A stretch of 64,000 bases of DNA from Candidatus Eiseniibacteriota bacterium (GTDB lineage Bacteria > Orphanbacterota > Orphanbacteria > Orphanbacterales > Orphanbacteraceae). The notes beneath the pieces are model-generated. The model had not been told where the DNA came from and did not search any database. It was given only the letters and a program-made list of their open reading frames with translations. This document shows positions 863-43,349 of the stretch, piece by piece. The position numbers and the translations under genes were made by a program. How positions within the stretch are numbered: the stretch's first letter is position 1; the number at the start of each line of letters is the position of its first letter. The DNA is taken from NCBI GenBank assembly GCA_043809585.1, contig JBDROZ010000064.1, positions 1 through 64,000 on the forward strand, in the 5' to 3' direction.

Positions 863-877
863 TGGCATGCCCCTTGC
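863..877 (+). promoter_or_regulatory. Sigma54 (-24/-12) promoter
   Basis: TGGCATGCCCCTTGC has GG-N10-GC spacing, is close to the TGGCACG-N4-TTGC consensus and lies 32 nt upstream of the kinase ATG. Confidence 0.8.
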
Positions 878-909
878 GGTTTCCTCGGGGTGAGGAGGAG
901 GAGAAGTCG

Positions 910-2292
910 ATGGCCGAAGACGGGAAGTTCCCCTCGATTCCGCGAATCGAGGTGCGCTTCACCCTTGGCCTCGTGCTGATCACCCTCCTCGGAATCAACG
1001 TGGGGGGCTGGGTCTTCTACGGGGAAGCGAGGGAGTACATGGAAGGGCTCTCCAGGAAGCGTCTCGTCACGGTCGCCCAAGCGGTCTCCGCCCAGATCGA
1101 CCGGGACCGGGTGCTCGGGTTCCTCCCCGGCGACGAGGGGGGGGAGGCGTACGAGGAGGAGCGGGACCGCCTGATTCGGCTCAGGGATGAGGCGGAGCTG
1201 GACCGCGTTTTTCTCGTGGCCCCTTACCTGGGGAGCCTCCTCGACACGAGGGGGGAGACCCCCGTGGGAGAGGACGATCCCCACGTCGACATGAACGCGG
1301 AATCGATGGCGCCCCTCTGGGAAGGGCGGCCGGTCGGCCTCCCGGTCTACGAGATCGAGGGGGAGCGGTTCCAGACCGCCTTCGCTCCCGTTCTCGCCGA
1401 GAACGAGCTCCGGGCGGTGGTGGGGGTCGACGCGAGCGCCCGGTTCCTGGCGGACCTCGAGATCCTCCGCCGGGGCCTCTTCGCGACCGCCCTCCTCAGC
1501 CTCGTGATCGCCTCGGGGCTCGGCTGGTTCGTCCACCGGAACACGCGGCGCGTCGTCGCCCTCCAGGGGGAAATCAAGAACGCGGAGAAACTCGCCGCCC
1601 TCGGCACGCTCACCGCCGGACTCGCCCACGAGATCCGGAACCCCCTCGCCATCATTCGCGCTTCGGCGGAACTTCTGGACGAAGAGGAGGGGGAGCCCGG
1701 TGGCGGCCGGGGCTACGGCGCACCGATCATCGAAGAGGTCGACCGGCTCGGCGCCCTCCTGACCCACTTCCTCGAATTCGCGAAACCCTACGGCCGGGGC
1801 GGGCCGGGGCGGGAGGACCTGAACCGGGTGGTCCGGGAGACGACGGAGCGGGCCGAGCCGGAGTTCCGGGAGCGGGGGATCCGACTCGAGCGGCGCATTC
1901 CGGCGGGGGAAACGATGGTGGTGATGGACCTGGGGCGGATCGCCCAGGCCCTCCTCAACCTGCTCTGGAACGCGCGGGACGCGGCGGCCGCCGGGGGAGG
2001 AAAGGTGGAAGTTTCCGTCGCGACCCGCAGGCGCGTTCCCCCCTCGGCGAGGCTCCTGGCGGAGAAGCCGAACCGCCGGGGCTACGCCGAAGTGCGGGTG
2101 GCCGACGACGGCGGGGGGATTCCGGAGGGGATCCGGGACAAGCTCTTCGACCCGTTCTTCACGACGAAGGAGAGGGGAACGGGGCTCGGCTTGTCGATCG
2201 TTCACGGAATCGTGCGGAGTCACGAAGGGTACGTTCTCGTCGAGAACGGCCAGGGCCGCGGAGCCGTGATCGGCTTCGGAATCCCCCGGTAG
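910..2292 (+). CDS. Membrane sensor histidine kinase (NtrB/ZraS-like)
   Basis: Two TM helices flank a periplasmic domain; H-box [10 protein letters not shown]-box [10 protein letters not shown]1 DDGGGI, F-box PFFTTK, G2 GTGLGL. Start moved to ATG 910 after the GAGGAGGAG RBS. Confidence 0.93.
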
Positions 2293-2304
2293 GAGATCGC
2301 AACG

Positions 2305-3687
2305 ATGCGCATTCTTGTCGTCGACGATGAACCGAAAATGCGGGACCTGATTGCGCGGGCTTTGGAGAAGGACGGGAACCAGGTGGATCTCGCCGCCTCG
2401 CTCGCGGAGTCCCGGGGGCGGATCGCGGCGGACACCTACGACCTCGTCGTCACGGACCTGAAAATGGAGACCGACGAGGCGGGTCTCGGCGTACTCGAAG
2501 CGGCGAAGGAAAAAGACCCGTCCACGGAGGTGATCCTGGTGACCGGGTTCGCGACGATCGAGGTGGGAGCCCGGGCGATCGACCGGGGGGCCTACGACTA
2601 TCTGATCAAGCCGTTGAAGATCGGCGATCTCCGGGGGCGCGTCGCGGCGATCGCCCGGAAACGGACCGATCCCGCGGGGGCCGCGGCGGCCGAGAGGCCC
2701 CCCGAGGGCCCGGTCGTCTTCGACGACATCGTGGTCGGCGGCAGCGCGGGCATGCAGAAGGTGTACGAGACGCTCCCCCGGGTGGTGGGCTCGTCTTCCA
2801 CGATCTTGATCCGGGGGGAGAGCGGGACGGGCAAGGAGCTCATCGCCCGGGCCATCCACCGCGCGAGCCCGCGCAAGAACGGACCCTTCGTGGAGGTGAA
2901 CTGCGCGGCCCTTGTCGACTCCCTCCTCGAGAGCGAACTCTTCGGCATCGAGAAGCGGGTCGCCACCGGCGTCGACCGGCGGGAGGGGAAATTCGAAACC
3001 GCGTCGGGAGGGACCCTCTTCCTGGACGAAGTGGGGGACATGAGCCTCGCCACCCAGGCGAAGGTCCTCCGGGCGATGCAGGAGAGGAAGATCGAGCGGG
3101 TCGGCGGCCGCGAGGCGGTCCCCGTGGACGTCCGCATCGTGGCGGCCACGAACGTCGATCTCGAGGAAGCAGTCCGGGAAGGCCGTTTCCGGGAGGACCT
3201 CTTCTACCGCCTGAACGTGATCACCATCGCGATCCCGCCGCTCCGCGAGAGGATCGAGGACATCCCCCACTTCGTGGAGCACTTCCTCGGCAAGTTCAAC
3301 CGGGCTTTCTCCCGCCGCATCGACGGAGTCGATCCGGCGGCGATGGAGGCCCTCGGCCGCTATTCGTGGCCGGGGAACGTACGGGAGCTCGAGAACGCCA
3401 TGGAGCGGGCCTTCCTGATGAGCCGGGACTCGGTGATTCGCCCCGAAGACCTCCCGGAGAAGATCGGAGGGGCCGCGCCCGCCGCGCGGGGCGGCTATCT
3501 GTTCACCCTGCCCGAGTCGAGCATCCGGCTCGAAGAGGTGGAGCGGGACTTCATCGTCCAGGCCCTCGAGAGAACGGGCGGCAACCGGACCCGGGCGGCG
3601 AAGCTGCTCGGCCTGACGCGGCGGATCCTCGGCTACCGGATGGAGAAGTACAAGATCGAGGGGGACGAGGACCCCAAGAACCGATGA
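2305..3687 (+). CDS. NtrC-family response regulator (REC-AAA+-HTH) with atypical RVATGV loop
   Basis: REC domain (VVDDE, VTDLKM), Walker A GESGTGKE, ESELFG, Walker B FLDEVG, WPGNVREL and a Fis-type HTH. Confidence 0.93.
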   Translation: MRILVVDDEPKMRDLIARALEKDGNQVDLAASLAESRGRIAADTYDLVVTDLKMETDEAGLGVLEAAKEKDPSTEVILVTGFATIEVGARAIDRGAYDYLIKPLKIGDLRGRVAAIARKRTDPAGAAAAERPPEGPVVFDDIVVGGSAGMQKVYETLPRVVGSSSTILIRGESGTGKELIARAIHRASPRKNGPFVEVNCAALVDSLLESELFGIEKRVATGVDRREGKFETASGGTLFLDEVGDMSLATQAKVLRAMQERKIERVGGREAVPVDVRIVAATNVDLEEAVREGRFREDLFYRLNVITIAIPPLRERIEDIPHFVEHFLGKFNRAFSRRIDGVDPAAMEALGRYSWPGNVRELENAMERAFLMSRDSVIRPEDLPEKIGGAAPAARGGYLFTLPESSIRLEEVERDFIVQALERTGGNRTRAAKLLGLTRRILGYRMEKYKIEGDEDPKNR

Positions 3688-5593: not shown

Positions 5594-5638
5594 GCGATCC
5601 GAGATCGCAGTAGGAGATTTGTGCATAATCCAGGCTAG
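5594..5638 (+). repeat. Copy 2 of the ~46-bp direct repeat; its CTAG end contains the TAG stop of the convergent Omp85-fusion gene
   Basis: Matches 234-279. Confidence 0.8.
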
Positions 5639-8415
5639 AAGTCTCTTCCGATTCGAAAATAGCCGGAGAGAGGACCGAGGTTCCGGCGTCCGTCGCTCAT
5701 CTGCGGGAAGTCGAGCATGAGTTGGAAGGGCCCGAAGAACGCGCGGATTCCGGGGCCGTAGGCGATGCGGGGACGCTCTTCGCCCGCGAAGTACCCCGCG
5801 TCGGCGAAGAGCACGCCCCGGATGCCGCCGAAGGTGATCGGGAAGGGCCATCCGAGACGGAGGGCATCGACGAGGGGGAAGCGGACTTCCGCACTCTGCA
5901 CGGCGTAACCCCGTTCCCGGTCGGTGAGGTCGGGAAACCCGCGGACCAGGCTCCGGAAACCTAAACCGAAGACCGGCCCCCCCGCCCCGGCCGAACGGCC
6001 GGCGACGGTCCGCGACGCGATCACCACCCGTTCCCCCGCAGGCTCGTAGAACCGGGCGTCGACCCGGGCCCACCCGCCGCCTTCCCCTTCCATGACGAGG
6101 GGCTCCAGGGAGAGGCGGAGGCGGCGGCCTCGGCGCGGGCCGTGCCACGACCACCGCGCGTTGTCGTGCACATAGGCGATCTCGGCGCCGGCGAAGAGAG
6201 AGGTCTCCCCCTCGCCCAGATCGCGGAGCACTTCGTCGTTTCCTTCGCCGATCCGCCCCCCCCACTCGAAACGCCGGTACCGGTCGAGAGGGTAGAGCAG
6301 CCGGAACCGAAGACCCCGGTAAAGCGCCTCCCGTCTCACCCCGTTCCAATCGACGAGGGCCCGCCGGAACTGGAAGACCGATGCTTCGTACTCGGTCCGC
6401 CCCACACGGTTCTTGTACGCGGCGAACAGGTCGGAATTCCCCATGGAACCGTAGATCCCGAAGGCGACCTCCATGCGATGGCCTCCGAGGAGATCGGAGA
6501 AGTAGATCGAAGAACCCGAGGAGAAGCCTCCGTCCGGTCCCGCCCCCGCGCCGGCCGCGCGAACGTCCGCCGTGAGCCGAGCCCGGTACGGGAGAACCCG
6601 GTAGGGGGGGAGGTAACCGGCGCCCTCCGGCGGCGTGCCCGAGGCGAGGGCGAGGGCCGGACCCATGAGATCCCCCGGGGGGAGCGAGGGATCGCCCGGC
6701 GCGTAGCCGGGATCGGGCATGACGTGCACGGTCCAGCTCTGTCGCCGGAACGAGACGAAAGAAAAGTCGCCGCTCTCCCGGCTCCAGGAGAGGACGGGGG
6801 ATTCGGACAGGAGGCCGGCCGCTCCCCCCTCGAGCCGCGTGATTCGCCGGACCGACGCGGCGGCGAGGTCGTGAAGGTAGACGTCCGGCGTTCCCGCCCG
6901 GTCCGAGACGAAGAGGATCCGGTTCCCCTCGGGGGACCAGACGGGGGAGTGGTTGTTCCCTTCCTGGCCGGGCAGAACGGTCCAGCGGCCGGTCCGCAAG
7001 TCGAGCACGCCGATCCGGAGGGTGCGATCGGGAGGGGCCGCCTCGCCGTCGACGATCCGGTCCGTGGCGCAGACCACCCGATTCCCGTCCGGCGACCAAT
7101 CGGGATGAATGTACAGGAACCGGTCGGCGGTCAAGGGGGCGGCCTCTCCGGTCTTCCCGTCCACACGGTAGAGATCGGTCCGCCCGTCGGCGAGTCCCGC
7201 GGCGATCAGCCGACTTCCGTCGGGCGACCACGACACGCCCCGGATCTCCTCGAATCCGGGGCGGAGGGTGCGGATTCGGTCTCCCGACCGGGCGTCCAGG
7301 ACGTGGATCACGTCGCCCCCCGAACCCTGGGCCGGGAGAGCGACGAGGCCGCCGTCCGGCGACCAGCGGCCGCCGCCGTGATAAGGCCGGAGGGAAACGA
7401 GGTCCCCCGAGCCCCCCTCGCGGGCGAGGAGCCGGCCCTTCCCCCCCCCCGCTTTCACGGGATCGCGGTAGAGGCCGAATCCGCCCTCCCGGTCGGAAAG
7501 GACGAGCAGCTCGGCGCCGTCCGGAGAGAGGTCGGCCCCCACATTCACACGACCCTCCGCGTCCACCGGCTCGGCCACGCGGCCCGCCCGATTGAGGCGG
7601 ACCACCTCGGGCAGATACTCCCGGCGAAGGGCGTCCGCCCATTCCTCCGAGAGCTCCTCGTGCTCCCTGCCGAACACCATGCGCATCGCCTTTTCCGCGT
7701 CCCGGGAGAGAGCGAGGGCGCGCAGGAAATCCCCCGCCGAAGACTCGCCGCGCTCCGAAGCGAGCCAGGCCCAGGCGGCCTGGCCGAAGCGGTAGATGCG
7801 CACGTCCCCCATCCGCGAAAGGCCGGAGAACGACGGGGGCGGGCCGTCGAGCAGAGAGTCCCTGAGCCACATCCGGGTGAAGGGATCGACCCCTCCCCGC
7901 GAGAGGTACTCCGCCATCCCCTCGATCATCCAGAGGGGAACCGTGGTCCCGTTCAGTCCGGCCGTTCCCTCGGGATCGAGGATGTCGATCTGGAAGGCGT
8001 GAACCAGCTCGTGGTGAAGGACGTGGCGGAATTCCTCCCGGGATCCGGGATAGGGGAGGAAGACGCGACGCTTCAGGAACTCCGTGATCCCGCCGGTCCC
8101 CTCGTCGATCACGTAGGGGGTGATCGGCGTGCTCTGGAACTCCGGATGGGACCCGTAAAGGACGACGGGCACGGGCCGGGCGATCTCGTGATCGAGGCGG
8201 GCCGAAAGATCCTCGTAGATCGCTTCGGCGAGAGCGACCGTTTCGAGCGCCAGGTCTTCCTCCTCCCGGTAGAAGTGGATCCGGAAGTGGGCGGTCTCGA
8301 GGACCCTCCATTCCCGGTCATGATAGCGGACCTTGTTCTGGCCAAAGTACGACGCTTTCGCCGGCGGGGCGGCCGCGAGGCAGAAGAGGACCGTGAGAAG
8401 TGCGGTTCGCTTCAT
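5635..8415 (-). CDS. Gluzincin peptidase (MA-like) + TolB/PD40 beta-propeller + Omp85/BamA-type barrel fusion
   Basis: Signal peptide MKRTALLTVLFCLAAAPPAKA then FGQNKV; HELVH and WMIEGMAEY; repeated WSPDG; Omp85-like VRGF, SAEVRFP, LFADAG; C-terminal FRIGRDF. Start moved to ATG 8415. Confidence 0.85.
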   Translation of the reverse strand: MKRTALLTVLFCLAAAPPAKASYFGQNKVRYHDREWRVLETAHFRIHFYREEEDLALETVALAEAIYEDLSARLDHEIARPVPVVLYGSHPEFQSTPITPYVIDEGTGGITEFLKRRVFLPYPGSREEFRHVLHHELVHAFQIDILDPEGTAGLNGTTVPLWMIEGMAEYLSRGGVDPFTRMWLRDSLLDGPPPSFSGLSRMGDVRIYRFGQAAWAWLASERGESSAGDFLRALALSRDAEKAMRMVFGREHEELSEEWADALRREYLPEVVRLNRAGRVAEPVDAEGRVNVGADLSPDGAELLVLSDREGGFGLYRDPVKAGGGKGRLLAREGGSGDLVSLRPYHGGGRWSPDGGLVALPAQGSGGDVIHVLDARSGDRIRTLRPGFEEIRGVSWSPDGSRLIAAGLADGRTDLYRVDGKTGEAAPLTADRFLYIHPDWSPDGNRVVCATDRIVDGEAAPPDRTLRIGVLDLRTGRWTVLPGQEGNNHSPVWSPEGNRILFVSDRAGTPDVYLHDLAAASVRRITRLEGGAAGLLSESPVLSWSRESGDFSFVSFRRQSWTVHVMPDPGYAPGDPSLPPGDLMGPALALASGTPPEGAGYLPPYRVLPYRARLTADVRAAGAGAGPDGGFSSGSSIYFSDLLGGHRMEVAFGIYGSMGNSDLFAAYKNRVGRTEYEASVFQFRRALVDWNGVRREALYRGLRFRLLYPLDRYRRFEWGGRIGEGNDEVLRDLGEGETSLFAGAEIAYVHDNARWSWHGPRRGRRLRLSLEPLVMEGEGGGWARVDARFYEPAGERVVIASRTVAGRSAGAGGPVFGLGFRSLVRGFPDLTDRERGYAVQSAEVRFPLVDALRLGWPFPITFGGIRGVLFADAGYFAGEERPRIAYGPGIRAFFGPFQLMLDFPQMSDGRRNLGPLSGYFRIGRDF

Positions 8416-8655
8416 GGGATGGGGTGCCGGGAGTGGAGATCTCAATCGACTCGAGAAGTTCATTATACCGGATCTCTTGCGCCATCTCAAGAACGGAAAG
8501 ACGAGAAGTCGTTTTCATCGGCAACGGGAGCGAGGCAGAGGGGGCGTGAGGGGGCGAGGGACCTCTCTCGCCTCCTCGCGGTTTGTTCCGGGCGGTCCCG
8601 GCGGGGCCGATCGCCCGACCCGCCGCGGGGAGGTCCGGTGGCGGGGAAGGTGGCG

Positions 8656-8671
8656 GGGCATGGCCCTTGCA
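8656..8671 (+). promoter_or_regulatory. Sigma54 (-24/-12) promoter
   Basis: GGGCATGGCCCTTGCA (GG-N10-GC), followed by a GGAGGAGG RBS and ATG 8694. Confidence 0.6.
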
Positions 8672-8693
8672 CCGGAGGAGGGGAGGAGGACCG

Positions 8694-9683
8694 ATGGGAG
8701 ATCCCGTGACGATCATCAGTGGCGATCCCGGTTTCCGGCTCGTCCTCGAGGAAGCGGACCGGGTGGCGCCGACCCCGGTCCCGGTTCTTCTCGAAGGGGA
8801 GTCGGGGACGGGTAAGGAGCTCGTCGCCCTCCGGATCCACGAGCGGAGCGACCGTTCGGACCGGCCCTTTTCGGCGGTCAACTGCGCGGCCCTCTGTGAG
8901 ACCCTCGCCGAGAGCGAGCTGTTCGGCCACGTGGAAGGGGCATTCACCGGCGCCGTGAGGGACCGGAAGGGGATCTTCGAGGAGGCCGGAGGGGGAACCC
9001 TGTTCCTCGATGAGATCGGGGACCTCTCCCCGTCGATCCAGGCGAAGCTTCTCCGGGTCTTGCAGGAGGGAGTGGTGCGGCGCGTCGGTGAGTCGATCCC
9101 CCGGCCGGTCCGGTTCCGGCTCCTGGCGGCCAGCCACAGGGATCTCACGAAGGAAAAGGACGAGGGAAGGTTCCGGGAGGACCTGTTCTACCGCGTGCAC
9201 GTCGTCCGTCTGCGCATTCCGCCCCTGCGGGAGCGGGAAGGGGACATCCCCCTTCTGGTGGGACGGCTCCTTCCCCGCCTGGCCCGTCTCTACGGCAAGC
9301 GGATCGCGGGCGTCCGGGTGGGGGTCACCCGAATTCTCGAGCGCTACGCCTGGCCGGGCAACGTCAGGGAACTCGAGAACGAACTGAAGCGTCTCGTCGC
9401 CCTCGCGGAAGAGGACGGCTGGATCGAGCGCCACCATCTCTCCGAGACGATCCGCACGGAAACCTCGGAACCGAATTGGGAGCCGGTAACCCTCCAGGAG
9501 AAGATCGACCGGCTGGAACGCTCCGAGATACTCCGTATGCTCGATCGCAGTCAGGGGAACAAGACTCGAGCCGCCCGGGAACTCGGTCTCTCCCGGCAAG
9601 GTCTCAAGAACAAACTCGCCCGCCACGGGCTCGGGGAAGAAGGATATGAGAAAAGCAACGAGGTAATCTCTGTAGAGCGTTGA
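8694..9683 (+). CDS. Sigma54-dependent activator lacking an N-terminal regulatory domain (PspF-like architecture)
   Basis: Begins directly at the AAA+ domain; GESGTGKE, intact GAFTGA, FLDEIG, WPGNVREL, C-terminal HTH. Confidence 0.9.
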   Translation: MGDPVTIISGDPGFRLVLEEADRVAPTPVPVLLEGESGTGKELVALRIHERSDRSDRPFSAVNCAALCETLAESELFGHVEGAFTGAVRDRKGIFEEAGGGTLFLDEIGDLSPSIQAKLLRVLQEGVVRRVGESIPRPVRFRLLAASHRDLTKEKDEGRFREDLFYRVHVVRLRIPPLREREGDIPLLVGRLLPRLARLYGKRIAGVRVGVTRILERYAWPGNVRELENELKRLVALAEEDGWIERHHLSETIRTETSEPNWEPVTLQEKIDRLERSEILRMLDRSQGNKTRAARELGLSRQGLKNKLARHGLGEEGYEKSNEVISVER

Positions 9684-10160: not shown

Positions 10161-10997
10161 TCAACGAATCAGCGTCATCCGCCGGGAGATGATCCCATCG
10201 GGCGTCGGCCACCGGAGGAAGTACATTCCCGCCGGCGCCAAAACCCCTCGGGAATCGCGACCGTCCCATTCCGCAAATACCGGTCCGCCGCCGGCAGATG
10301 CGCCGAGATCCTTAACCCGGCGTCCTCTCGTGTCGAACACGGCCACGCTGCCCGCGGAAGCACCCCGGGAAGGCCCCGTGAGCCGGAACCGCACCGCGCC
10401 GCGGCTCGGGTTGGGGACGGGGGGGCCGATCTCCCAGGCCAAGGGCGGGCGGTCGTCGCGAACGCCGGTGGCCTCGTCGACGAAGACGACGCCGTTCGAC
10501 CAGATCAGCGGATCGAGGGGAACGCGGTCCCGGTCGGTGACGACCGCCGAGACGAACTCGACCACCGACACGCCGAGAGAGAGCGCCTCGAAGCGGATCC
10601 GGGCGAGCTCCCCCGGCGCGACCACGTACGCCTGGCCGTGGAGGATCACGTCGAAAACCTCCCACGTGCCCAACGACTCTTCTTCGACGTGAAACCAGGT
10701 CGGAAGTCCGGTCTCCACGTAGAGAGACCCTTCCAGAGCCTGCAGGAACTCGATGATCGACGGGTCGAACCGGAAGATTACCTGGAAGTTCGCGAACGTG
10801 TCCGCCTCCTCGTTGATTCGGAGGGCGAACTCGAACTCGTCCCCCGGCGCCACGAGCACCGAAGCGGGAGCCAGACTGACCGTGGGCGCCCCGTGGGCGG
10901 GAAGAACGTTCGAGGTCCATAGGACCGAGGCGAACACGATCGGAAGGCCGACCGCCCGGATTCGGATTCTCCGGAGAGAAACGATCTTCGTCATCAC
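10161..10997 (-). CDS. Secreted cohesin-domain protein with FlgD-Ig/T9SS-type C-terminal domain (small subunit 2)
   Basis: Signal peptide; VSLAPASVLVAPGDEFEFALRI..FQVIFRFDPSIIEF..EGSL is cohesin-like; C-terminal PNPS..FDTRGRRV..WDGRDSRG..GMYFLR; paralog of 13317..14129. Confidence 0.75.
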   Translation of the reverse strand: MMTKIVSLRRIRIRAVGLPIVFASVLWTSNVLPAHGAPTVSLAPASVLVAPGDEFEFALRINEEADTFANFQVIFRFDPSIIEFLQALEGSLYVETGLPTWFHVEEESLGTWEVFDVILHGQAYVVAPGELARIRFEALSLGVSVVEFVSAVVTDRDRVPLDPLIWSNGVVFVDEATGVRDDRPPLAWEIGPPVPNPSRGAVRFRLTGPSRGASAGSVAVFDTRGRRVKDLGASAGGGPVFAEWDGRDSRGVLAPAGMYFLRWPTPDGIISRRMTLIR

Positions 10998-11058
10998 ATC
11001 TGCCTCCCTTCCGGGCGGCCGGCGGAAGTCGCAAGGCCCGCCCCGGCCCGCGTCCCCC

Positions 11059-13269
11059 TTACTTCAGAAGCAACAGCTTCGATGTCTTCACGTAGTCTCC
11101 CGCCTCCAGGCGCACGAAGTAGACACCGCTCGAGAGGGTCCGTCCCCTCTCGTCCCGGCCGTCCCACAGGGCCTCTCCCGCCCCCGCCTCGCGCTGGCCG
11201 TCGAGCAGGGTTCTCACGAGCCGGCCCTTAGGATCGTAGACGCGCAGAGACAGATGGCTCGGCCGCTCCAGCTCGAAACTCACTTTCGTGACCGGGTTGA
11301 ACGGGTTGGGCCAGGCCCCGGCGAGGCGGGTCGCCGCGGAGCGGGGCGCCGGGGATCCGCCCTCCCTTGCCTGGATCGCCACTCCGAGGGGCTCGTTGGC
11401 GGCTCCCCGAAGATCGGCGGAGGCGATGCGAAGATCACCGGTCTCGTCGCCCGTCATTCGGAAGCGGAGCCGAGCGATCTCCCCGTTTCCTTCGACCGTG
11501 GCCCCGATGCCTAGGGCCGCGAAGTCGAACCAGCATTGCCCCCTTCCCTCCCGGCCCGCGAGGAAGAAGAGGGTCCCCGATTCGGACCAATCCGCCCCCC
11601 GGTCGGTCCCGAGCCACTCGAGGCGGTCCGGATCGTAGTCGATCCGCACGCCCGCGCCTTTCAGTTCGCCGGCGTTCCCCCCGATGCGGCAGCAGACGAG
11701 CAGATCCCGCTCCCCGCCGATGCCCTCCTCCACGATTCGGAGGCCGAGCCGGGGGGGACCCGCTTCCGCTCCTCCCGCGAGCCGGACGGGCCCCTTCTTC
11801 GTCGTGGGCGACAGGTCGTTGAAGCTGAGCGCCGTGATCATCAGCTCTTCGAAGTCCACCAAGTCGTCCGGCACGGGAATGCCGAAACGTCTCCCGTCGC
11901 TCGTGGGGGCGAAATCGAGTTCGTTGAACGGCGGCGGAGGGGGATTACTCCAGGGGCTGAACAGGTGGTAGCCCGAGCTGAGGCGGTTCACGTCGAAGAA
12001 GTCGACGTACCCGTCCCGGCCCCCGCCGGGCGCATCGATATCGGCCAGGAAGTAGTCCGTGGCCCGGTCCTTCGATCCCGTGCCTGCCGCGCTGTAGTTG
12101 CCCGCCTCGTCCACGGCCCACACCGTGTAGTAATACACGTCCCGGTTCGCATTGTCGTTCGGGAAGTCGTCGTCGTAAGCAGCCCCGGGCGCGAGGACGA
12201 GACCGACGTAGTCCGTCTCACCGGGCCCCGGCGTTCCAGGATAGGCGGGCCCGGGAGGCGCGTACTCGGGGTAGTCGTTCCACCGGTTCCGATGGATCTC
12301 GATCCCCTTCAGGACCCCCCACGAATCGGCGGGCGCGCTCCAGGCCAGGTTCACGCGATGAAAATGGGGAGTGGCGTCGAGGTCCGAGACCTCCGCCGGG
12401 GGCGTGTTGTCCGCAACGATGTCGTCCGACCCTGCGCCGGAGTTCCCCACGGCGTCGGTCACGTCGACGTCGACCGTCACCGTCCCGTTCGACGGCGAAC
12501 ACACGGCGGCGCCCAGGGGGACCGTCCAGGTGTAGGTCGGGTAGGCGCCGGAGGCCGGAGAATCCGCGTCGTGCCCCGAGCCGCCGTAGAAGCCGTTCAG
12601 GTCCGCCGTGACGGTCATCCCGTCGCCGGAAACGTAGTCTGCGTCGCTGACCGTGGCGACGATCTCTACTTCGTCTCCATCCTTCACCCAGACCGTGCTC
12701 CCGATCGCCGTGTCTGTGATGGTCACGTCCGTGACGGCGGGGGCGTTCAGGTTGACCACCAGAAGACCGTCATCGGGAACGAAACCGGTGAGCTCCTGGT
12801 TCGCGTTGTCCCGGACGTTTACCACCGTGAGCGCCACCGGGCTCGTCCCGTAGGCCACGCCCGTGAATTCGATGGAGAACATGGTCCCCGGCCCGCTAAC
12901 CCCGGGCTGGACTCCGAGAAGGACGCAATCGACGATGATCGTGTCCGTTCCCGTCTCGTGCACCTCGAACCAGGTCAGCCCCTGGTCGGAGAGGAGGTTC
13001 CCCTCCGTGACCGCCGCCGTCGACGTGGACGCCACCGAGGAGTCCCAGGTAAACCGGATCGAAAACCCGTAAAGGAGCCCGGACCCGCCGCCGAGGTAGT
13101 CGACGTTCACCGTCTGCACGTCTCCGGGAGAGGCGGACAAGGTCTGCGGGCTCGGATCACATACGATATTGGCGCCCAGGGCGGCTCCGGCCGCCGCGAG
13201 CGTCGCGAATCCGACGAGGAGCGCGGCGGACGCCGCGGAATCCCATCGGCTCCTCCACCATTTTCTCAT
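11059..13269 (-). CDS. Secreted cohesin/Ig/FN3/dockerin-like/cohesin protein with FlgD-Ig C-terminal domain (736 aa, large subunit 2)
   Basis: GAGGAG RBS and ATG 13269; signal peptide; two dockerin-like repeats (ADID..DGYVDFFDV, LDF..PDDLVDFEEL); PNPFNP..WDGRDERG..SGVYF tail. Confidence 0.75.
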   Translation of the reverse strand: MRKWWRSRWDSAASAALLVGFATLAAAGAALGANIVCDPSPQTLSASPGDVQTVNVDYLGGGSGLLYGFSIRFTWDSSVASTSTAAVTEGNLLSDQGLTWFEVHETGTDTIIVDCVLLGVQPGVSGPGTMFSIEFTGVAYGTSPVALTVVNVRDNANQELTGFVPDDGLLVVNLNAPAVTDVTITDTAIGSTVWVKDGDEVEIVATVSDADYVSGDGMTVTADLNGFYGGSGHDADSPASGAYPTYTWTVPLGAAVCSPSNGTVTVDVDVTDAVGNSGAGSDDIVADNTPPAEVSDLDATPHFHRVNLAWSAPADSWGVLKGIEIHRNRWNDYPEYAPPGPAYPGTPGPGETDYVGLVLAPGAAYDDDFPNDNANRDVYYYTVWAVDEAGNYSAAGTGSKDRATDYFLADIDAPGGGRDGYVDFFDVNRLSSGYHLFSPWSNPPPPPFNELDFAPTSDGRRFGIPVPDDLVDFEELMITALSFNDLSPTTKKGPVRLAGGAEAGPPRLGLRIVEEGIGGERDLLVCCRIGGNAGELKGAGVRIDYDPDRLEWLGTDRGADWSESGTLFFLAGREGRGQCWFDFAALGIGATVEGNGEIARLRFRMTGDETGDLRIASADLRGAANEPLGVAIQAREGGSPAPRSAATRLAGAWPNPFNPVTKVSFELERPSHLSLRVYDPKGRLVRTLLDGQREAGAGEALWDGRDERGRTLSSGVYFVRLEAGDYVKTSKLLLLK

Positions 13270-13316
13270 ACCCGTTCTCCTCTCTGAGCGGCGAAACCGG
13301 CCCGCCGTTCCTGCGA

Positions 13317-14129
13317 CTATCGAATGCGGACGACGCGCCGGACTGCGGACCCTCCCTCGTGGTCCCACCGGAGGAAATAAACTCCGGGGGGGACGGGCCG
13401 GCCCCGAGAATCGGTCCCGTTCCAAATGCATTCCGCCGATCCACCGGCGCCTTCCGCAGGAATCGTCGTCATGCGCCTGCCCCGGGCATCATAAACCTCC
13501 ACGACGGCGCCTCCCGCTCCGTCCCCCCGAAGCCCGAACCGCACCGAATGGCGGAAGGGATGGGGCCGCGGGAAGTCGATGCCTCGGAGGGGCGCTCCGA
13601 TGAGGTCACCGTCCACCCCCGTCGGGACGTCGCCCACCCAAACGTACCCGTCGATCCACGAGACGTCCGGCACCGGATCCCGGCCGATGTCTTTCAGATT
13701 CACGGCCCCGAAACGGATGCCCGAATATCCGTCCGCGAGCGCCTGGAATCGGAGCCTCGCGAGCTCACCGGGGGGGAGGATGAAACTGAGGGCGGGGAAA
13801 ATGACGTCGAAAACCTCGAGGCTTCCGGGAACAATCTCCTCGAAATAGAACCAGGTCTGATTCCCCGATGCCGTGTAGAGGGAACCTTCGAGCGCAACGT
13901 CGAACCGAATCACGGCCGGATCGAACTCCACGAAGACTTGAAAATTAGAGATGGTGTCGACGCCGTCGTCGATCCGGAGACCCACTTCGAAGTAGTCGGA
14001 CGGATCGGCGAAAGTCGCTCTCGGTTCGACGAATACGGATGGGCCCGCCGGGGCGGGCTGAACAGTGCCGATCACGAGCGCCGTGGAGACTAATAGCGCC
14101 GCGGCCCCAGCGGGAGTCCGTAATTTCAT
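13317..14129 (-). CDS. Secreted cohesin-domain protein with FlgD-Ig C-terminal domain (small subunit 1)
   Basis: Signal peptide; NFQVFVEFDPAVIRF..EGSLY; YDARGRR..WNGTDSRGRPVPPGVYFLR. Confidence 0.75.
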   Translation of the reverse strand: MKLRTPAGAAALLVSTALVIGTVQPAPAGPSVFVEPRATFADPSDYFEVGLRIDDGVDTISNFQVFVEFDPAVIRFDVALEGSLYTASGNQTWFYFEEIVPGSLEVFDVIFPALSFILPPGELARLRFQALADGYSGIRFGAVNLKDIGRDPVPDVSWIDGYVWVGDVPTGVDGDLIGAPLRGIDFPRPHPFRHSVRFGLRGDGAGGAVVEVYDARGRRMTTIPAEGAGGSAECIWNGTDSRGRPVPPGVYFLRWDHEGGSAVRRVVRIR

Positions 14130-14200
14130 TATTCACCTTTCAGACTGAAGGGAGCGCCGGGGGGGGCGGTGCATCGCCCCCCCGAGGCGTGACAAAGGAG

Positions 14201-17200
14201 CTATCGGAGCATCACCACCTTGGCGCTCCGCGAGTAGTCGCCGGCGACCATCCGGACGAAGTAAACGCCGCTGCCGGCGCTATGTCCCCGATCGTCCCGA
14301 CCATCCCAGACCGCGTCGAACGCGCCCGCGCTCTTGCTCTCGTCCACCAAGGTCCGAACCATCCGACCCTGGGCGTCGTAGATCACCACCGACACGTGGC
14401 TCGGCACGTTCATCTCGAACCGGATCGTCGTGGTCGGGTTGAACGGGTTCGGCGCCGCGCCGACGAGGCGGGTCACCGAGGGAATCGTCCCCGGAAGGAC
14501 ACCCGTCGCGTTGTCGGTCTGGAAGTCCACATTTCCGTTTTCGGCGTCCCGGAGGATCACGTCACCGAAGCGAAGGTCCCCGTCCCCCTCGGCCCGCCGC
14601 GTGAACGACAGAACCGCCAGGTCCCCGGAACCATGGATCGACCGCTCCGTACCGAGAGCCGCCAGGTCGATCGTCACCCGGCCCGAAGAACGTTCCTCGG
14701 AGATGAAGAAGACCTGTCCCGAGGAGAGGTCCTGAGAAGGAACGGCCGAGACGAACTCCAGGACCGATGCGTCGAAGAGGAGTTCCACGCTCGCCCCCTT
14801 CACCTCGCCGTCGTTCCCCTCGAGAACCAGGCGGACCGGAAGGTCGGCGGTCCCCTCGTCCGCGGGGAGAAGCCGGAGCGTAGGCGAGGAGGCCTTGGAC
14901 GCTCCCGCCAGCACCACCGGAGGCGAGGCCTTGCCCGAAGGATCGACCACGTTGAAGTTCATGGCGAAGATCAGGAGGTCCTCGAAGTCGACCACGTCGT
15001 CCGGACGCGGGATGCCGAGACGGCTCCAGTTGTCCGTCGGGCCCACGTCGCACTCGCCGTTCCAGTCGAGGCTCCCGTCCACTTCCCAGTACGTGTCGGA
15101 GAGATCGTTGATGTCGGCGAACTTCACCTCGCCGTCGTACGGGGAGGCCACGTCGCCGAGCCAGTAGTTCGTCGCCCGGTCCCCCTGGGCGAACGAACCG
15201 AGAATCGGATCGCCCGGAGGGGTTCCGCCGCTGTAGTTGTCCGCACAGTCGTACGTGAAAGCCCGGTAGAACCAGATCGAACGGTCGGTCAGGGGATCGT
15301 CGTCAAAAGACGAGGCCGTTCCACTGTAGACCGTGACCCCGTCCGACGGGTCCGCCGGATAGGAAGGGCTTCCCAGGTAGTCCGGATAGCCGTAGGGGCT
15401 CGAAGCGTCCCACGCCTTCCGCACCACCACCACGTGGTCGAAGTCGTCGGAGACCGGATTGGTCCACGAGAGGTGAACCTTGCCGTTCCCCGGCGCCGCG
15501 TCGAACGCCGTCGCCACCGGGGGGGCCACTGTGTCCTTCGTGAAGGTCCAGGAGACGGTCGCGCTCGAGTCCCCGAAGTCGTCGGTGCAGTAGAAATCGA
15601 CCGTGTGCTCCCCTTCACCGAGGCCCGCGAAGCCGGGAAGGGTCCACGTCGCGTTGGTCCACGCCACCCCGGCGTAGTCCGTGAAGAGACCGGCGTCCGC
15701 CGTCCACGCACCGCCGTCGACCCGATAGAACGCGTCGTCCAGATCCCCGCACGCCTCCGAAGCCTCGAGGTCGAGGACCGGAGCCGCTGCGTAGCACTCG
15801 CCGACCGCCGGGCCGTTCACCGTGAAGACCGGCGCCGTCAGGTCGACGTAGATCGCCCCGTCGTCCGCGTAGAAGCCGGAGAGGGGCTGGTTGTTGTTGT
15901 CACGCACCGCCACCACCGTCAGGTCGATGACGCTCGTGTCGCAGGAGACCCCGTCGAACTCGACGGAGAACATCGTTCCCGGACCGCTCACTCCCGGCTG
16001 GGCACCGAGGAGTACGCAGTTCACCGTGATCGTGCTCCCCACCTGGTTCGCGAAGAACTGGGTCGTCCCCTGATCGGAGAGGAGGTTCCCCTGAGTCACC
16101 TGGCCGACGCTGGTCGAGACAGACGGGTCCCAGGAGAAGGTCATGTTGTAGCCGTAGACCAGGCCACTGCCGCCGCCGAGGTAGTTCACGTCGATCGTCT
16201 TCGTCGGCGACGCAACGGTTAGGACCTCCGGATCCGGGTCGCAGACGATGTTTTCACCGCCCTCTTTCCCGATCCACGGATCGACGGCGACGTTGCCGGT
16301 CACGTTGTCGCCCGAACCCCGCTTCGCCACGTTCGGGCCCGAGCTGTCTCCCCACCAGTTGAAGCGCGCGTCCACCGTATCCGAAGCGCCGTCCTCGCGG
16401 ACACCGAAAGTGGTGTTGCCGACGATGCTGTTGTACGATAACGTTACTCGCTTGGTGTCGATCACGTGATACCCCACATCAACACCGATGTCGTTGTCCT
16501 CGATGATATTGTTCTCGATGTCGATGTCTTGTCCCTTGACATTGACGCCGGCCGAGGAACATCCCGTCAGTTGGTTGCCCGCAATGGTGATGAACGTCGT
16601 GGCGCCCCAGAAGTTCACACCCTTGCGGCACGAGGCGAACTCGTTGCCCAGAACCTGCACATTGGTCAGGTTGCTGCCGCCGACACCGTTGCCGCCGGGA
16701 AAACCGTTCGCTACGTTTCCGGAGACCTCAATCGCCGTACATCCCGTCATATAGATGCCGGAAGCGTCCGAGGCCGGCCCCGTGCCGGGAATCAGGTGAT
16801 TGCCGGCAATCACGCAGCCATCGTACGTCCCAGGCTGGAAGGTCACCCCAACCTTGTTGATGGTCATCCGGTTCCGGAGTACGTCGATTCCGCTACCGCC
16901 CTTATGAAGGAGGGCGAAGTAGCCGTCGATGATGTTGTCGGCGACTGTCAGATCGTTCCCCCAGGCACGGACCACCGTCTCATCCGCGTAGTGGGACGTC
17001 GGGGAGCCGATCAGGGTGAATCCCGCGATCGAAGCTCCGTCCACGCCGCCCAGAACCTCGACGGCCACGTTCGGATTCGTGACGGGAAGACCCGTAATGT
17101 CGACAATGGACTCGGCGCCCGAGTCCGTTCGGGCTCCCAAAGTGGTTGGGTCCACCCCGTACTGGGCTCCCCGGAGATCGACGGCTTTGTGGACCGACAA

Positions 17201-19855
17201 GCGCTCCTCATAGGTGCCCGCCGCAACGTTCACCGTGCTGCCATCGACGAGATCGATCCCTTCCTGGATTCGACCGCCGGCACCGGTCTGCGGGCTGTCG
17301 TCGTCGACCCACAGTTCGGAGAGGTCGATTTCGAAGCCCTTCGTGAAAACCGTTCCGCCCACGGCCCAGGGCGTGTAGTCGACCGGTCCGTCGATGAGGG
17401 CCGCCACCGCCGCGGGCGCGACGACACCGTAGAAGTTCCACGACGCGTCGACGATGTCCGCCAGCGTCGACGAAGCGACAACGGCGTAGGTACTGGAGGT
17501 GAAGCTGTTGCCGTGGAGCTCCGCGGAGATCGGTCCACCGTAATCATAGGCATAGAAGCCCGTGTCCCAGTCCAAGAAACGGCAACCGGTCACGGTGATG
17601 TCCACCGCGTCGGGGGATGTAGAGAAGGCGCCCATCCCCCAACTGTATTCGAGGTCCGTTCCGAAGAAGTCACAGTTGTCGACCGTGACGGCCATGGATG
17701 CCTTCGCGCCCCCCCCGAGTCCCTCGTCGATGGGGGAGGGGAGTGGACGGTCGAAGTCGGACTTCTTCGCCGAGGCATTGTAGGCGTAGAAGCCGTCGCC
17801 TTCCGGATTCGTGACCGTCCCTTCCGAGAAGGAACCGCTCATGCTGATCCAGTAAACGCTCGTCTGATTCCCGTCGAGCGCCATCCCCGTCACGGTGATC
17901 GGGGCCCCGTCGGAGGGGAGAAAACCGCTCGCCGTATAGGTCTCCCCGGTGTACGAGTTCCCGGAAATGTCGCAGTCCGCGATCGTTCCGCCGGAACCGT
18001 AGCCGACCTGAATCCCGTTCTGGGCGGTCACACCCGTGGCGCCTTGGCCGACCGTGGTCACCCGGGTGAGGTCGACGGTCAACCCGTCGCCGAGGAGGGC
18101 GACGCCCGTCTTCTGGTAGTCGTCGACGAGGACGTCCGTCATCGTGATCGTATACGGTCCTCCCGTGTCGTTGTACGAATAGACCCCGACCCCGTGCTGG
18201 GCGCCGCTGAAGGCGCTGTCCATGACGTTCAGCACCTCCATGTCGGTCATGGATCCGTCACCGTTCCAGAAGCCGACGCCGACGAACCGGTAGTTCGTGT
18301 CTCCCTGGTTCGCCCCGTCCACGGTGAGGTCGGCGAGGGCCACCCCCGTCGCCCCGTCGATGAAGACTACCGGGTAATTGTCGTCGCTGCTCGTGAAGAA
18401 CTCGGTGAGGGTCACCGGCGACTCGATTACCGTGAGGCCCGTCCCCGCGCCCGCCAGTGACAGGTTGCTCTTCGTCACGTGGACCTGCTCGACATACGTT
18501 CCCTCCGCGATGTCCACCGATCCGCCGGCGAGGACGCCGTCGACGCCCCCCTGGATCGTCCCGAAGGCATCGTAACCCCAGACGTAGTTCGTGGCGTTGG
18601 CCGTGTTGTAGGCGTCCACATCCGCCTGGCTCGTGAAGTCGTCGTCCACGAGGACCGTGGTCACGGCGTTGGTGGTGAAGGAGAGACCGCCGCCGAGCTC
18701 GCCGCACTCCTCGGGATAGTGGTTGCCGGAGCCGTAGAGCCAGCCGCCGCTCGCGTCCTGGGTGGCGCCCGCCCAGTATCCCATGTGGTTGATCTCGGTC
18801 TGGTAGGTCGCCTGATCGAGATTGCCGAGGGTCATCATGGCGTACGCGGTGGATTGCCAATCCGCGTCGTCGTCGTTCGCCCCGTAGCTGAAGCTGATCG
18901 CGCCCCCCGTGTACTGGCCGTCGAGGAGCCTCGTCACGAGCCCCGCGATCTCGGAGGTATGGACGCCCGCCGATGAAAAGGCGTCGATGAGCCCCGTGAT
19001 GCCGAGGTTGTACCAGTAGTAATCGAGATTCGAGTAGGTCGGATCCCATCCCGCGTCGTCGACGATATCGAAGTAGCCGGGATTGTCGTTGAACGAGTCC
19101 TCCCAGAGGACCTCCGCGATGTCGTCCGCATCGGTGTCGTACCCGTTCCCCGAATACCGGTCGTCGAGCATCGCCGCCGCCCGGGCCCACGCCCCGACGT
19201 CCCACGCGATGATCCCGTTTTCGTATCCCTGACCCGCTCGTACGTCACGGATGTGCTTCGCCAGAGAGTCGGCCGAACCGTAGATGGCCATCCGGCCTTC
19301 GTACTTGGCTCGGGCCGAATCGGCGTACGTCGTTCCGCTCACGGCCGGAAGGTCGTCATACAGCATGAGAAAGATCAGATCGCCCGCCGAGCGGATGTCC
19401 GCGTCAGCGATCATCACGTCCGCCGCGTCGGTGAGGGCGGTGAATAGGCCGGCGTCCCCCGACTCCATGTAGGCGTAGAGGAGGCCGATCCCGGTCGCCC
19501 CGTAGATGTTCTTCGGGCTCGCCGACGTGGAGTGAAAGAACGGGTCGGCCGGTGAGTTCCGCACCCAATCCCAGCCGCCGTCGTCCGGATCGTCCGGCGA
19601 CTCGTCGACGCCGTCCGTTCCGTTCCCGGCGTTGTCCTCGGTCACGTCCGCCGCCATCTGCTGCAGATAGGAGCCGAGGGATTGAAGTGCCTGGTCCAGG
19701 TCGACCGGGTCTCCGACCGCGCGGAGGGGCACGCGGATCTCCTCCCGCACCGGCGGCCGGAGGGGAATATTCTCGTCCAGCGGCTGGGCCTGGTTCGCCA
19801 GGATCGCTCCGGCGCCGAGGGCCAGGAGCGCCAGCACTTGAATCAGTCGTTTCAT
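14201..19855 (-). CDS. 1884-aa secreted multidomain protein: alpha-toroid, beta-helices, cohesin, Ig/FN3, dockerin-like, cohesin, FlgD-Ig CTD (large subunit 1)
   Basis: Signal peptide MKRLIQVLALLALGAGAILA; QDASGGW-type repeats; two beta-helix caps (TIQGGVD..IAEGTYVE, RIQEGID..VAAGTYEE); DARFNWWG; last ~680 aa collinear with 11059..13269. Confidence 0.8.
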   Translation of the reverse strand: MKRLIQVLALLALGAGAILANQAQPLDENIPLRPPVREEIRVPLRAVGDPVDLDQALQSLGSYLQQMAADVTEDNAGNGTDGVDESPDDPDDGGWDWVRNSPADPFFHSTSASPKNIYGATGIGLLYAYMESGDAGLFTALTDAADVMIADADIRSAGDLIFLMLYDDLPAVSGTTYADSARAKYEGRMAIYGSADSLAKHIRDVRAGQGYENGIIAWDVGAWARAAAMLDDRYSGNGYDTDADDIAEVLWEDSFNDNPGYFDIVDDAGWDPTYSNLDYYWYNLGITGLIDAFSSAGVHTSEIAGLVTRLLDGQYTGGAISFSYGANDDDADWQSTAYAMMTLGNLDQATYQTEINHMGYWAGATQDASGGWLYGSGNHYPEECGELGGGLSFTTNAVTTVLVDDDFTSQADVDAYNTANATNYVWGYDAFGTIQGGVDGVLAGGSVDIAEGTYVEQVHVTKSNLSLAGAGTGLTVIESPVTLTEFFTSSDDNYPVVFIDGATGVALADLTVDGANQGDTNYRFVGVGFWNGDGSMTDMEVLNVMDSAFSGAQHGVGVYSYNDTGGPYTITMTDVLVDDYQKTGVALLGDGLTVDLTRVTTVGQGATGVTAQNGIQVGYGSGGTIADCDISGNSYTGETYTASGFLPSDGAPITVTGMALDGNQTSVYWISMSGSFSEGTVTNPEGDGFYAYNASAKKSDFDRPLPSPIDEGLGGGAKASMAVTVDNCDFFGTDLEYSWGMGAFSTSPDAVDITVTGCRFLDWDTGFYAYDYGGPISAELHGNSFTSSTYAVVASSTLADIVDASWNFYGVVAPAAVAALIDGPVDYTPWAVGGTVFTKGFEIDLSELWVDDDSPQTGAGGRIQEGIDLVDGSTVNVAAGTYEERLSVHKAVDLRGAQYGVDPTTLGARTDSGAESIVDITGLPVTNPNVAVEVLGGVDGASIAGFTLIGSPTSHYADETVVRAWGNDLTVADNIIDGYFALLHKGGSGIDVLRNRMTINKVGVTFQPGTYDGCVIAGNHLIPGTGPASDASGIYMTGCTAIEVSGNVANGFPGGNGVGGSNLTNVQVLGNEFASCRKGVNFWGATTFITIAGNQLTGCSSAGVNVKGQDIDIENNIIEDNDIGVDVGYHVIDTKRVTLSYNSIVGNTTFGVREDGASDTVDARFNWWGDSSGPNVAKRGSGDNVTGNVAVDPWIGKEGGENIVCDPDPEVLTVASPTKTIDVNYLGGGSGLVYGYNMTFSWDPSVSTSVGQVTQGNLLSDQGTTQFFANQVGSTITVNCVLLGAQPGVSGPGTMFSVEFDGVSCDTSVIDLTVVAVRDNNNQPLSGFYADDGAIYVDLTAPVFTVNGPAVGECYAAAPVLDLEASEACGDLDDAFYRVDGGAWTADAGLFTDYAGVAWTNATWTLPGFAGLGEGEHTVDFYCTDDFGDSSATVSWTFTKDTVAPPVATAFDAAPGNGKVHLSWTNPVSDDFDHVVVVRKAWDASSPYGYPDYLGSPSYPADPSDGVTVYSGTASSFDDDPLTDRSIWFYRAFTYDCADNYSGGTPPGDPILGSFAQGDRATNYWLGDVASPYDGEVKFADINDLSDTYWEVDGSLDWNGECDVGPTDNWSRLGIPRPDDVVDFEDLLIFAMNFNVVDPSGKASPPVVLAGASKASSPTLRLLPADEGTADLPVRLVLEGNDGEVKGASVELLFDASVLEFVSAVPSQDLSSGQVFFISEERSSGRVTIDLAALGTERSIHGSGDLAVLSFTRRAEGDGDLRFGDVILRDAENGNVDFQTDNATGVLPGTIPSVTRLVGAAPNPFNPTTTIRFEMNVPSHVSVVIYDAQGRMVRTLVDESKSAGAFDAVWDGRDDRGHSAGSGVYFVRMVAGDYSRSAKVVMLR

Positions 19856-43208: not shown

Positions 43209-43226
43209 GGTCACCTCCGAAGTTCC

Positions 43227-43272: not shown

Positions 43273-43349
43273 CTCATTCCAAAGTCCGAGCCTGGAATTT
43301 GCACAAACCTCCTACTGCGATCTCGGATCGCCGCCTGCCATTAAGAAGC

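Follow-up and report, generated by a model that had tools for sequence, protein, structure and literature searches.

A cohesin–dockerin family on type IX sorting tails in diderm candidate phyla, with a dockerin-like module apparently clasped by the cohesin that follows it

What do cohesins and dockerins, the textbook plug-and-socket pairs of Gram-positive cellulosomes and a widely used tool of protein engineering, do on the surface of a diderm bacterium? The question is raised by contig JBDROZ010000064.1 of a Candidatus Eiseniibacteriota bacterium (assembly GCA_043809585.1), the first 64,000 nucleotides of which were analysed as one window. Between positions 10,161 and 19,855, four co-oriented open reading frames (ORFs) on the minus strand, termed A to D and separated by gaps of 47-71 bp, encode secreted-looking proteins built from cohesin-like and dockerin-like modules (Table 1). 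An earlier sequence-only reading regarded them as a candidate self-assembling scaffold, in which proteins with both modules could polymerise or branch. Here we propose, with moderate confidence and from modelling and covariation, a different arrangement: the large proteins A and C would carry a self-clasped pedestal of FN3-like domain, dockerin-like module and cohesin above the C-terminal sorting domain (CTD), and the remaining cohesins, including the small proteins B and D, would be free surface sockets.

Each of the four predicted proteins begins with a basic or charged stretch followed by a hydrophobic stretch, which resembles a signal peptide as judged by eye from the translations, and ends in a FlgD-Ig or type IX secretion system (T9SS) type tail, in agreement with the sequence-only reading. 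The small proteins B and D indeed consist of one cohesin plus the tail. The large proteins have two cohesins, an N-proximal coh1 and a second, coh2, around a duplicated dockerin-like motif with loop insertions, which is present as had been quoted from the letters. The 736-residue form of C, starting from MRKWW, equals the recorded protein, and a longer ORF from position 13431 overlaps gene B; gene C carries no cargo domain.

The cohesins are genuine but highly diverged, by profile and by fold. Pfam Cohesin (PF00963, curated cut-off 24.1 bits) matched five of the six cohesin-like segments at E<=10, and the cut-off was passed by D alone, with 24.4 bits for the whole protein and 26.7 bits for the domain. 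Below it lie A coh2 (23.0 bits), A coh1 (20.9), C coh2 (13.5) and B (12.7), and C coh1 gave no match at E<=10. A profile of 43 small cohesins, comprising B, D and relatives, retrieved 34 PDB chains at E<=1, the best 30 of which come from cohesins or scaffoldins, with 3l8q_A (1.7e-7) at the top, the other four being unrelated; Pfam Cohesin itself matched 32 of the 43 at E<=0.01 (best 3.9e-10). Hidden Markov models (HMMs) of coh1 and coh2 cross-match each other and the small proteins, indicating that the three classes are related. Fold comparison covers the model of A coh2, taken as residues 104-239 of the AlphaFold2 model of the A dockerin-like module plus coh2. Foldseek gave 6kgd_A as the best match (E 7.8e-10), all listed rows being cohesins. 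In VIA the top 20 rows were all cohesins (Z 13.2-8.9, root-mean-square deviation 2.1-3.2 over 124-134 residues), and a CLIPPER domain ranked next (Z 8.3), ahead of pilins and adhesins (Z<=7.3). Thus coh2 models as a cohesin, and not as the generic Ig or carbohydrate-binding module (CBM) fold that had been named as the refuting outcome.

The dockerin-like module comprises about 85 residues in two repeats and is conserved across 58 aligned sequences (A, C and 56 relatives). It was compared with the canonical dockerin, in which the loop D-x-[DN]-x-D-G-x-[VI]-[DN]-x-x-D followed by a helix occurs twice in tandem. Repeat 1 has the consensus [ST]NYWLGDV-(insert)-YDGxVDxxDxxxLSxxY, and D17, G27 and D33, corresponding to positions 1 (D), 6 (G) and 12 (D) of the Ca loop, are invariant in the 58 sequences. 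Repeat 2 reads E.DVGPT-(insert)-PDDxVDFEDLMIFAMNY with a conserved D...DDxVDFED pattern; its loop together with helix 3 contains D59, G61, P62, D75, E81, D82 and L83, each at least 90% conserved. Each Ca loop is broken by an insertion between positions 3 and 5. The most distant members, from Zixibacteria records, have an uninterrupted canonical first loop, GDxDGDGxVxFxDL. Helix 1 differs between subfamilies, and the corresponding strand of the small cohesins differs likewise.

A search of the PDB with the 58-sequence profile gave eight matches at E<=10. Dockerin-bearing chains take the first five places, namely 4wi0_B (1.3e-4), 4u3s_B (1.7e-4), 2y3n_B (9.2e-4), 5k39_B (0.048) and 4fl4_A (0.21), and three unrelated chains follow (E 0.56-0.76). 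Both repeats are covered in the alignment to 4wi0_B, which has a gap exactly at the insertion of loop 2. The same PDB dockerins were retrieved by a 90-row profile of the dockerin-like module plus coh2, which matched dockerins only and no cohesin. On these sequence grounds the module is, with weak to moderate confidence, a diverged dockerin bearing an insertion in each Ca loop. The claim that the modules are relatives of cohesins and dockerins, rather than generic Ig or CBM domains, is therefore upheld by the PDB profile matches and the coh2 fold. The HMM check proposed with it had a divided outcome: Cohesin in D and FlgD_ig in A and C exceed their cut-offs, but Dockerin_1 does not appear in A or C.

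Further analysis concerned the relation between the dockerin-like module and its neighbours. An AlphaFold2 model of the C module alone reached a predicted local distance difference test (pLDDT) score of 57, with the second repeat below 50. The A module together with coh2 was modelled with a mean pLDDT of 88.3 and a predicted template-modelling score of 0.86; its dockerin part scored 91-97 and the linker 81-91, and two helices, at residues 28-37 and 73-82, each follow a loop with pLDDT >90. The folding contrast is suggestive only, because the two models come from different proteins and from alignments of different depth (58 against 90 rows).

Covariation was examined by mean-field direct-coupling analysis (DCA) of the FN3, dockerin-like, coh2 and CTD segments, aligned for 258 of the 283 proteins gathered (244 unique, effective number of sequences 214). 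The strongest coupling between domains joins dockerin position 80 to coh2 position 36, with a score of 1.87 that ranks fifth among all pairs at least six positions apart; in A these are L1628 of helix 3 and G1687 of a near-invariant VKG motif. Position 70, within the second loop insertion, couples to FN3 positions 47 and 48 (1.78 and 1.60), and the pairs FN3 24-dockerin 60 and dockerin 79-coh2 83 score 1.52 and 1.17. Control domain pairs peak at 0.80 (FN3-coh2), 0.89 (dockerin-CTD), 0.99 (coh2-CTD) and 1.29 (FN3-CTD). The few couplings above noise have the positions expected of a compact FN3-dockerin-coh2 unit. In addition, nearly all the large genes have coh2 after the dockerin-like module, several lack coh1, and helix 3 and the covarying coh2 motifs are near-invariant across phyla. 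The dockerin-like module thus covaries with coh2 and FN3 and folds confidently only with coh2, from which we infer that the clasp probably lies within the protein.

The tails and the genome point to export by type IX secretion. FlgD_ig (curated cut-off 27 bits) scores 45.6 bits in A and 41.7 in C, and just below the cut-off in B (24.1) and D (25.8). TIGR04183, the T9SS type A model with a cut-off of 23 bits, scores 32.5 and 29.8 in A and C, and 18.5 and 18.2 in B and D, whose tails nevertheless align with the same CTD as those of the large proteins. The genome check that had been suggested for T9SS core genes found SprA (532.7 bits, summed within one 2058-residue frame) and two PorU genes (551 and 520 bits, cut-off 420), one of them adjoined by a PorV-like gene (107 bits, under the cut-off of 250). 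About 45 further frames of the genome bear the CTD. Proteins A to D are most likely cell-surface proteins exported by this system, and presumably anchored there.

The family is large. A word-indexed protein search returned 33 proteins, most of them nameless, and every named full-length relative of the cassette is annotated as hypothetical. Among 612 candidate stretches from a scan of one genome per species, 263 relatives were found and 72 loci kept, with labels including Eisenbacteria, Krumholzibacteriota, Zixibacteria, Fibrobacteraceae, Gemmatimonadota and Poribacteria. The dockerin+coh2 profile matched 3961, 1530 and 825 of 1.84 billion representatives of clusters at 50% identity, at E<=1e-3, 1e-10 and 1e-30, respectively. 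Among the matches listed, the host proteins range from 327 to 3759 residues, and for most of the 150 representatives listed, about 86 residues remain between the end of the unit and the C-terminus, enough for a sorting domain. Seven of the ten genomes examined from the source organism's own small phylum have the unit. The top profile match, P0037 (2234 residues), shows four stretches, and some relatives may therefore carry the unit repeatedly.

A Pfam scan of cargo in 39 of the 150 listed representatives, hand-chosen to fit a residue limit, found FlgD_ig in 37, Beta_helix or NosD in 21 and Cohesin in 10, and Dockerin_1 at E<=1e-5 in none. The others carry HYR, RCC1, BNR, Laminin_G_3, Big_13 or DUF domains, and two of the 39 have weak, sub-threshold matches to Pectinesterase and GH43. 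In A, Pfam likewise gives Beta_helix only. Glycoside hydrolases, polysaccharide lyases, carbohydrate esterases and CBMs gave nothing above threshold in A to D or the flanking genes, which are ordinary chromosomal genes; the earlier remark that no glycoside hydrolase is recognisable is hence confirmed. The N-terminal domain of A gave a lead to prenyltransferase- or squalene-cyclase-like alpha/alpha toroids, with Atlas feature scores of 0.77-0.85 against the level of 0.9 that marks more than a lead.

Large and small genes recur as pairs. The genome holds a third pair (locus L088, contig C109:43284-47001), in which a 926-residue frame with a different N-terminal domain and the full cassette is directly followed by a 310-residue frame with signal peptide, cohesin and CTD. 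Elsewhere, 98 large genes occur in the 72 loci, and 86 are testable in that at least 700 bp of downstream sequence is available: a small cohesin ORF follows directly in 48, another large gene in 15 and neither in 23. The pairing, whose conservation had been proposed as a check, recurs in this genome and beyond. In the large genes of the 72 loci, dockerin, coh2 and CTD are almost always complete. Many relatives, among them many Krumholzibacteriota-type loci, have a third ORF after the small gene, encoding a cohesin of about 187 residues without CTD or a double cohesin of about 325 residues (loci L015, L017, L018, L025-L029, L031, L033, L034, L036, L037, L040, L049, L052, L054, L063 and L074); a family HMM search found no such ORF in this genome.

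We propose that the conserved helix 3 (FEDLMIFAMNY) of the dockerin-like module packs on the following coh2, and that its second loop insertion packs on the preceding FN3. The FN3-dockerin-cohesin unit would then form a compact, self-clasped pedestal directly above the CTD, and could serve as a portable tail that brings diverse N-terminal cargo, mostly beta-helix, to the outer surface. Coh1 in the large proteins and the lone cohesin of B and of D would remain as unoccupied surface sockets, probably for further surface proteins that bear dockerins, or possibly for the variable helix 1 of the pedestal's own dockerin.

The genome encodes further candidate dockerin-bearing proteins, a class that the sequence-only reading suggested looking for. 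Pfam Dockerin_1 gave eight matches at E<=1 genome-wide, none on the contig carrying A to D. Five other large CTD proteins matched, mostly weakly: one exceeds the 22.9-bit cut-off, another two are weak (E ~1e-3) and the last two very weak (E ~0.2). The match lies 130-160 residues before the CTD in each of the five. In these intervening segments no Pfam family was found, and the cohesin HMMs gave only noise. A dockerin-cohesin-CTD order general to all dockerin proteins of the genome was considered and is unsupported, since the segments match neither a cohesin nor Pfam. Downstream of the dockerin gene on contig C88 lies a small gene (C88:39835-40686) encoding a signal peptide, a weak cohesin match (14.9 bits) and a CTD. 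The five proteins are possible ligands of the free cohesins.

Several points weigh against the clasped pedestal. Pfam Dockerin_1 (PF00404) gave no match at E<=10 on the A or C module, and hhalign of the module alignment against the five dockerins of this genome gave a probability of 8% (E 0.0043), with a template alignment so poor that the result is uninformative. Searches with the two-domain fold were filled by cohesins and say little about the dockerin part (residues 1-95), and the model does not establish placement on the canonical dockerin-binding face of coh2. As the two AlphaFold2 jobs concern different proteins, C and A, their comparison is no clean control. Above a noise level of about 1.3 stand just a single coupling between dockerin and coh2 and three or four between FN3 and dockerin, at the effective depth given above. 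Moreover, AlphaFold2 and DCA are blind to the difference between contacts within a chain and contacts between identical chains, and a head-to-tail polymer would give the same signal. The frequent small cohesin gene directly downstream is the expected look of a dedicated partner in trans. For the secretion route, GldM had no match in the genome, but control genomes also gave none.

One rival is assembly in trans, in which the dockerin-like module would plug into the downstream small cohesin or into coh1 or coh2 of another large protein, yielding surface chains or a lattice with the small proteins as anchors or caps, in the manner of the single-cohesin anchor ScaE of Ruminococcus flavefaciens. 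This would suit the recurrent large-then-small order in the three pairs of the genome and in the downstream counts elsewhere, as well as the canonical-dockerin CTD gene on C88 that also precedes a small gene of signal peptide, cohesin-like domain and CTD. The variable helix 1 and the matching strand of the small cohesins would likewise suit co-diversifying partners, and contacts between identical chains fit the DCA and AlphaFold2 signals equally. Nevertheless, the 23 testable large genes followed by neither kind of gene keep dockerin and coh2; both partners bear the same sorting tail, which makes an extra anchor needless; the near-invariant helix 3 and coh2 motifs suit a fixed internal interface better than one that determines specificity; and the linker is modelled confidently in a one-chain fold. 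We consider assembly in trans somewhat unlikely. Of the scaffold envisaged by the sequence-only reading, the modules, the T9SS tails and the gene pairing stand, but nothing shows the dockerin-like module as a free plug: it nearly always precedes coh2, and its folding and covariation tie it to that cohesin and to FN3. A compromise, which we rate as quite unlikely, would have one dockerin bridge two cohesins, helix 3 being permanently clasped in cis and the variable helix 1 left free for the small cohesin encoded downstream, so that T9SS cargo forms an ordered lattice; as part of it, FN3-dockerin-cohesin-CTD may be a general and hitherto unrecognised pedestal for anchoring T9SS cargo in FCB-type candidate phyla.

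It is also conceivable that no docking occurs at all, and that the cohesins and dockerins are relics serving as rigid, possibly Ca-stabilised spacers for beta-helix cargo, with the small proteins as coat or filler. The cassette adjoins Ig and FN3 spacers, the dockerin-like module has drifted beyond detection by Dockerin_1, the coh2 profile retrieves no solved cohesin by sequence alone, and the cargo is adhesin-like rather than enzymatic. However, the cohesin fold is closely kept (Z up to 13.2), and many lineages retain free single-cohesin proteins that have their own export and sorting signals; if these had no ligand, such retention would be difficult to account for. Other proteins of the genome also match Dockerin_1. 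A purely structural stalk is improbable in our view. Highly improbable is a cellulosome-like complex for polysaccharide degradation, in which the beta-helix and toroid-like domains of A act as lyases or hydrolases gathered on cohesin scaffolds. Beta-helix and alpha/alpha-toroid folds do include pectate lyases, two of the 39 relatives scanned have the weak Pectinesterase or GH43 matches, and a cellulosome-like complex with a T9SS CTD was inferred in Ca. Stygibacter (PMC8542988). Against this, A to D and their neighbours have no glycoside hydrolase, lyase or CBM above threshold, C is devoid of cargo, the toroid match of A is only a lead, and most relatives carry NosD-like beta-helices, HYR, RCC1 or BNR. 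Dockerin-bearing carbohydrate-active enzymes on a multi-cohesin scaffoldin, which define a cellulosome, were found above threshold neither in A to D and the flanking genes nor in the 39 relatives scanned. We read the locus as a non-cellulosomal cohesin-dockerin surface architecture and not as an enzyme-collecting cellulosome, with the self-clasped pedestal as the preferred arrangement.

Table 1. Genes and modules of the A-D locus (positions within the window) and further dockerin-bearing genes of the genome (contig:positions)
Feature	Position	Strand	Remarks
Gene A	14201..19855	-	1884 residues; signal peptide, N-terminal domain of ~380 residues, two beta-helix regions, coh1-Ig-FN3-dockerin-like-coh2-CTD
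A N-terminal domain	18656..19789	-	residues 23-400; no Pfam family
A beta-helix regions	16256..18658	-	residues ~400-1200; right-handed; Pfam Beta_helix 73.3 bits in 3 stretches; weak NosD-family match
A coh1	15836..16252	-	residues 1202-1340; N-proximal cohesin; Pfam Cohesin E 4.4e-4, below cut-off
A Ig-like and FN3-like	15191..15835	-	residues 1341-1440 and 1441-1555; from family HMMs; weak Big_13 match only
A dockerin-like module	14936..15184	-	residues 1558-1640; two loop+helix repeats, insertion in each loop
A coh2	14471..14893	-	residues 1655-1795; after dockerin-like module; Pfam Cohesin, Foldseek, VIA
A CTD	14204..14470	-	C-terminal sorting domain, FlgD_ig / T9SS type A
Gene B	13317..14129	-	270 residues; signal peptide, single cohesin, CTD-like tail
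B cohesin	13614-14045	-	
B CTD-like tail	13320-13577	-	
Gene C	11059..13269	-	736 residues; signal peptide, then coh1-Ig-FN3-dockerin-like-coh2-CTD
C coh1	12745-13170	-	
C Ig	12412-12744	-	
C FN3	12076-12411	-	
C dockerin-like module	11812-12072	-	
C coh2	11332-11763	-	
C CTD	11062-11331	-	
Gene D	10161..10997	-	278 residues; signal peptide, single cohesin, CTD-like tail
D cohesin	10452-10889	-	
D CTD-like tail	10164-10415	-	
Dockerin_1-matching CTD proteins (loci L083-L087)	C106:186-4190; C106:12059-19411; C88:40682-47605; C69:68421-73691; C73:55328-61744		

Elsewhere in the window, a sigma-54 activator with AAA+ and HTH_8 domains and no receiver domain (8550-9680, plus strand) is convergent with gene D, and a complete pair of histidine kinase and NtrC-type regulator lies at 838-3684. 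A sigma-54 promoter for gene A was considered and dropped: the pattern with at most two mismatches occurs nine times against 8.0 expected, and never on the minus strand upstream of A. At 5638-8514 (minus strand) lies a gene for a secreted-looking protein of 951 residues with central PD40/WD40-like beta-propeller repeats and long N- and C-terminal parts that have no assigned family. A patch of lower G+C content (0.59-0.60 against ~0.66) at 42000-46000 contains an ORF of 468 residues (43422-44828, plus strand) with no Pfam family. Genes for a UVR-motif protein, an ATP:guanido phosphotransferase (McsB-like) and a ClpC-like AAA+ chaperone stand in a row at 59556-63850 (plus strand); a gene order of the mcsA-mcsB-clpC type is familiar chiefly from Gram-positive bacteria. 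No RNA family of Rfam was found in the window.

The locus thus belongs to a large cohesin-dockerin family of diderm candidate phyla, with at least 825 clusters at 50% identity. Its cohesin-dockerin pair appears to have turned inwards, as a self-clasped module on a T9SS sorting domain with extra free cohesins beside it. If this is true, a class of dockerins with loop insertions, missed by current Pfam models, would be defined, and a handle would be gained on the organisation of the outer surface in uncultured bacteria of the Eisenbacteria, Krumholzibacteriota and Zixibacteria type. Literature linking cohesins or dockerins with Eisenbacteria, Krumholzibacteria, Zixibacteria or Latescibacteria was not found in the collection searched, nor was a description of the cassette found in the literature searched, including the accessible portions of PMC8542988, PMC4704652 and PMC12270676.

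Compared to the adaptor and anchoring scaffoldins of clostridia, such as ScaA and ScaB of Acetivibrio cellulolyticus (4u3s, 4wi0, 3l8q), the large proteins similarly combine cohesins and a dockerin in one chain. Among these scaffoldins are the top PDB matches of the dockerin-like profile (4wi0_B, 4u3s_B) as well as those of the small-cohesin profile (3l8q_A, 4u3s_A), and they share the cohesin fold with A coh2. They differ in that here the dockerin stands directly before a cohesin of the same chain, which apparently clasps it in the model, and both its Ca loops contain insertions. Anchoring would proceed by a T9SS CTD in a diderm, instead of by S-layer homology domains or sortase, and the A-D locus shows no enzymes that carry corresponding dockerins.

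The gene for ScaE of Ruminococcus flavefaciens sits in a scaffoldin gene cluster. ScaE (PMC12270676) is a single-cohesin scaffoldin for cell anchoring and resembles B and D in joining one cohesin to a surface anchor. Sortase attaches it to a Gram-positive wall and its dockerin partners are known, whereas the tail of B and D is a T9SS-type CTD that scores just under the cut-offs. A parallel among diderms is the cellulosome-like system inferred in 'Ca. Stygibacter' of the Cloacimonadota, a relative of the FCB group with a T9SS-type CTD on a cohesin-bearing protein, which shares cohesins, dockerins and the sorting tail with the present locus (PMC8542988). In that system the dockerins belong to recognisable hydrolases and peptidases, and tandem cohesins and CBMs occur in a scaffoldin of 3755 residues. 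By contrast, the present proteins have a fixed FN3-dockerin-cohesin-CTD tail, a dockerin invisible to Pfam, small single-cohesin genes and no recognisable enzymes.

Structurally, non-cellulosomal cohesins from Archaeoglobus fulgidus (2xdh, Z 12.5) and Clostridium perfringens (2vo8, Z 11.6) are among the best matches of A coh2. Further examples from C. perfringens are 2jh2 and the cohesin-FN3 pair 2w1n. Cohesin and dockerin modules outside cellulosomes were reportedly treated by Peer et al. in 2009. These examples are isolated modules or linkers of toxin complexes, and the conserved five-module cassette with CTD and paired small gene was not found among them within the reach of the search. If the clasp of the large proteins proves real, an intramolecular cohesin-dockerin unit would join the binding modes known for these modules.

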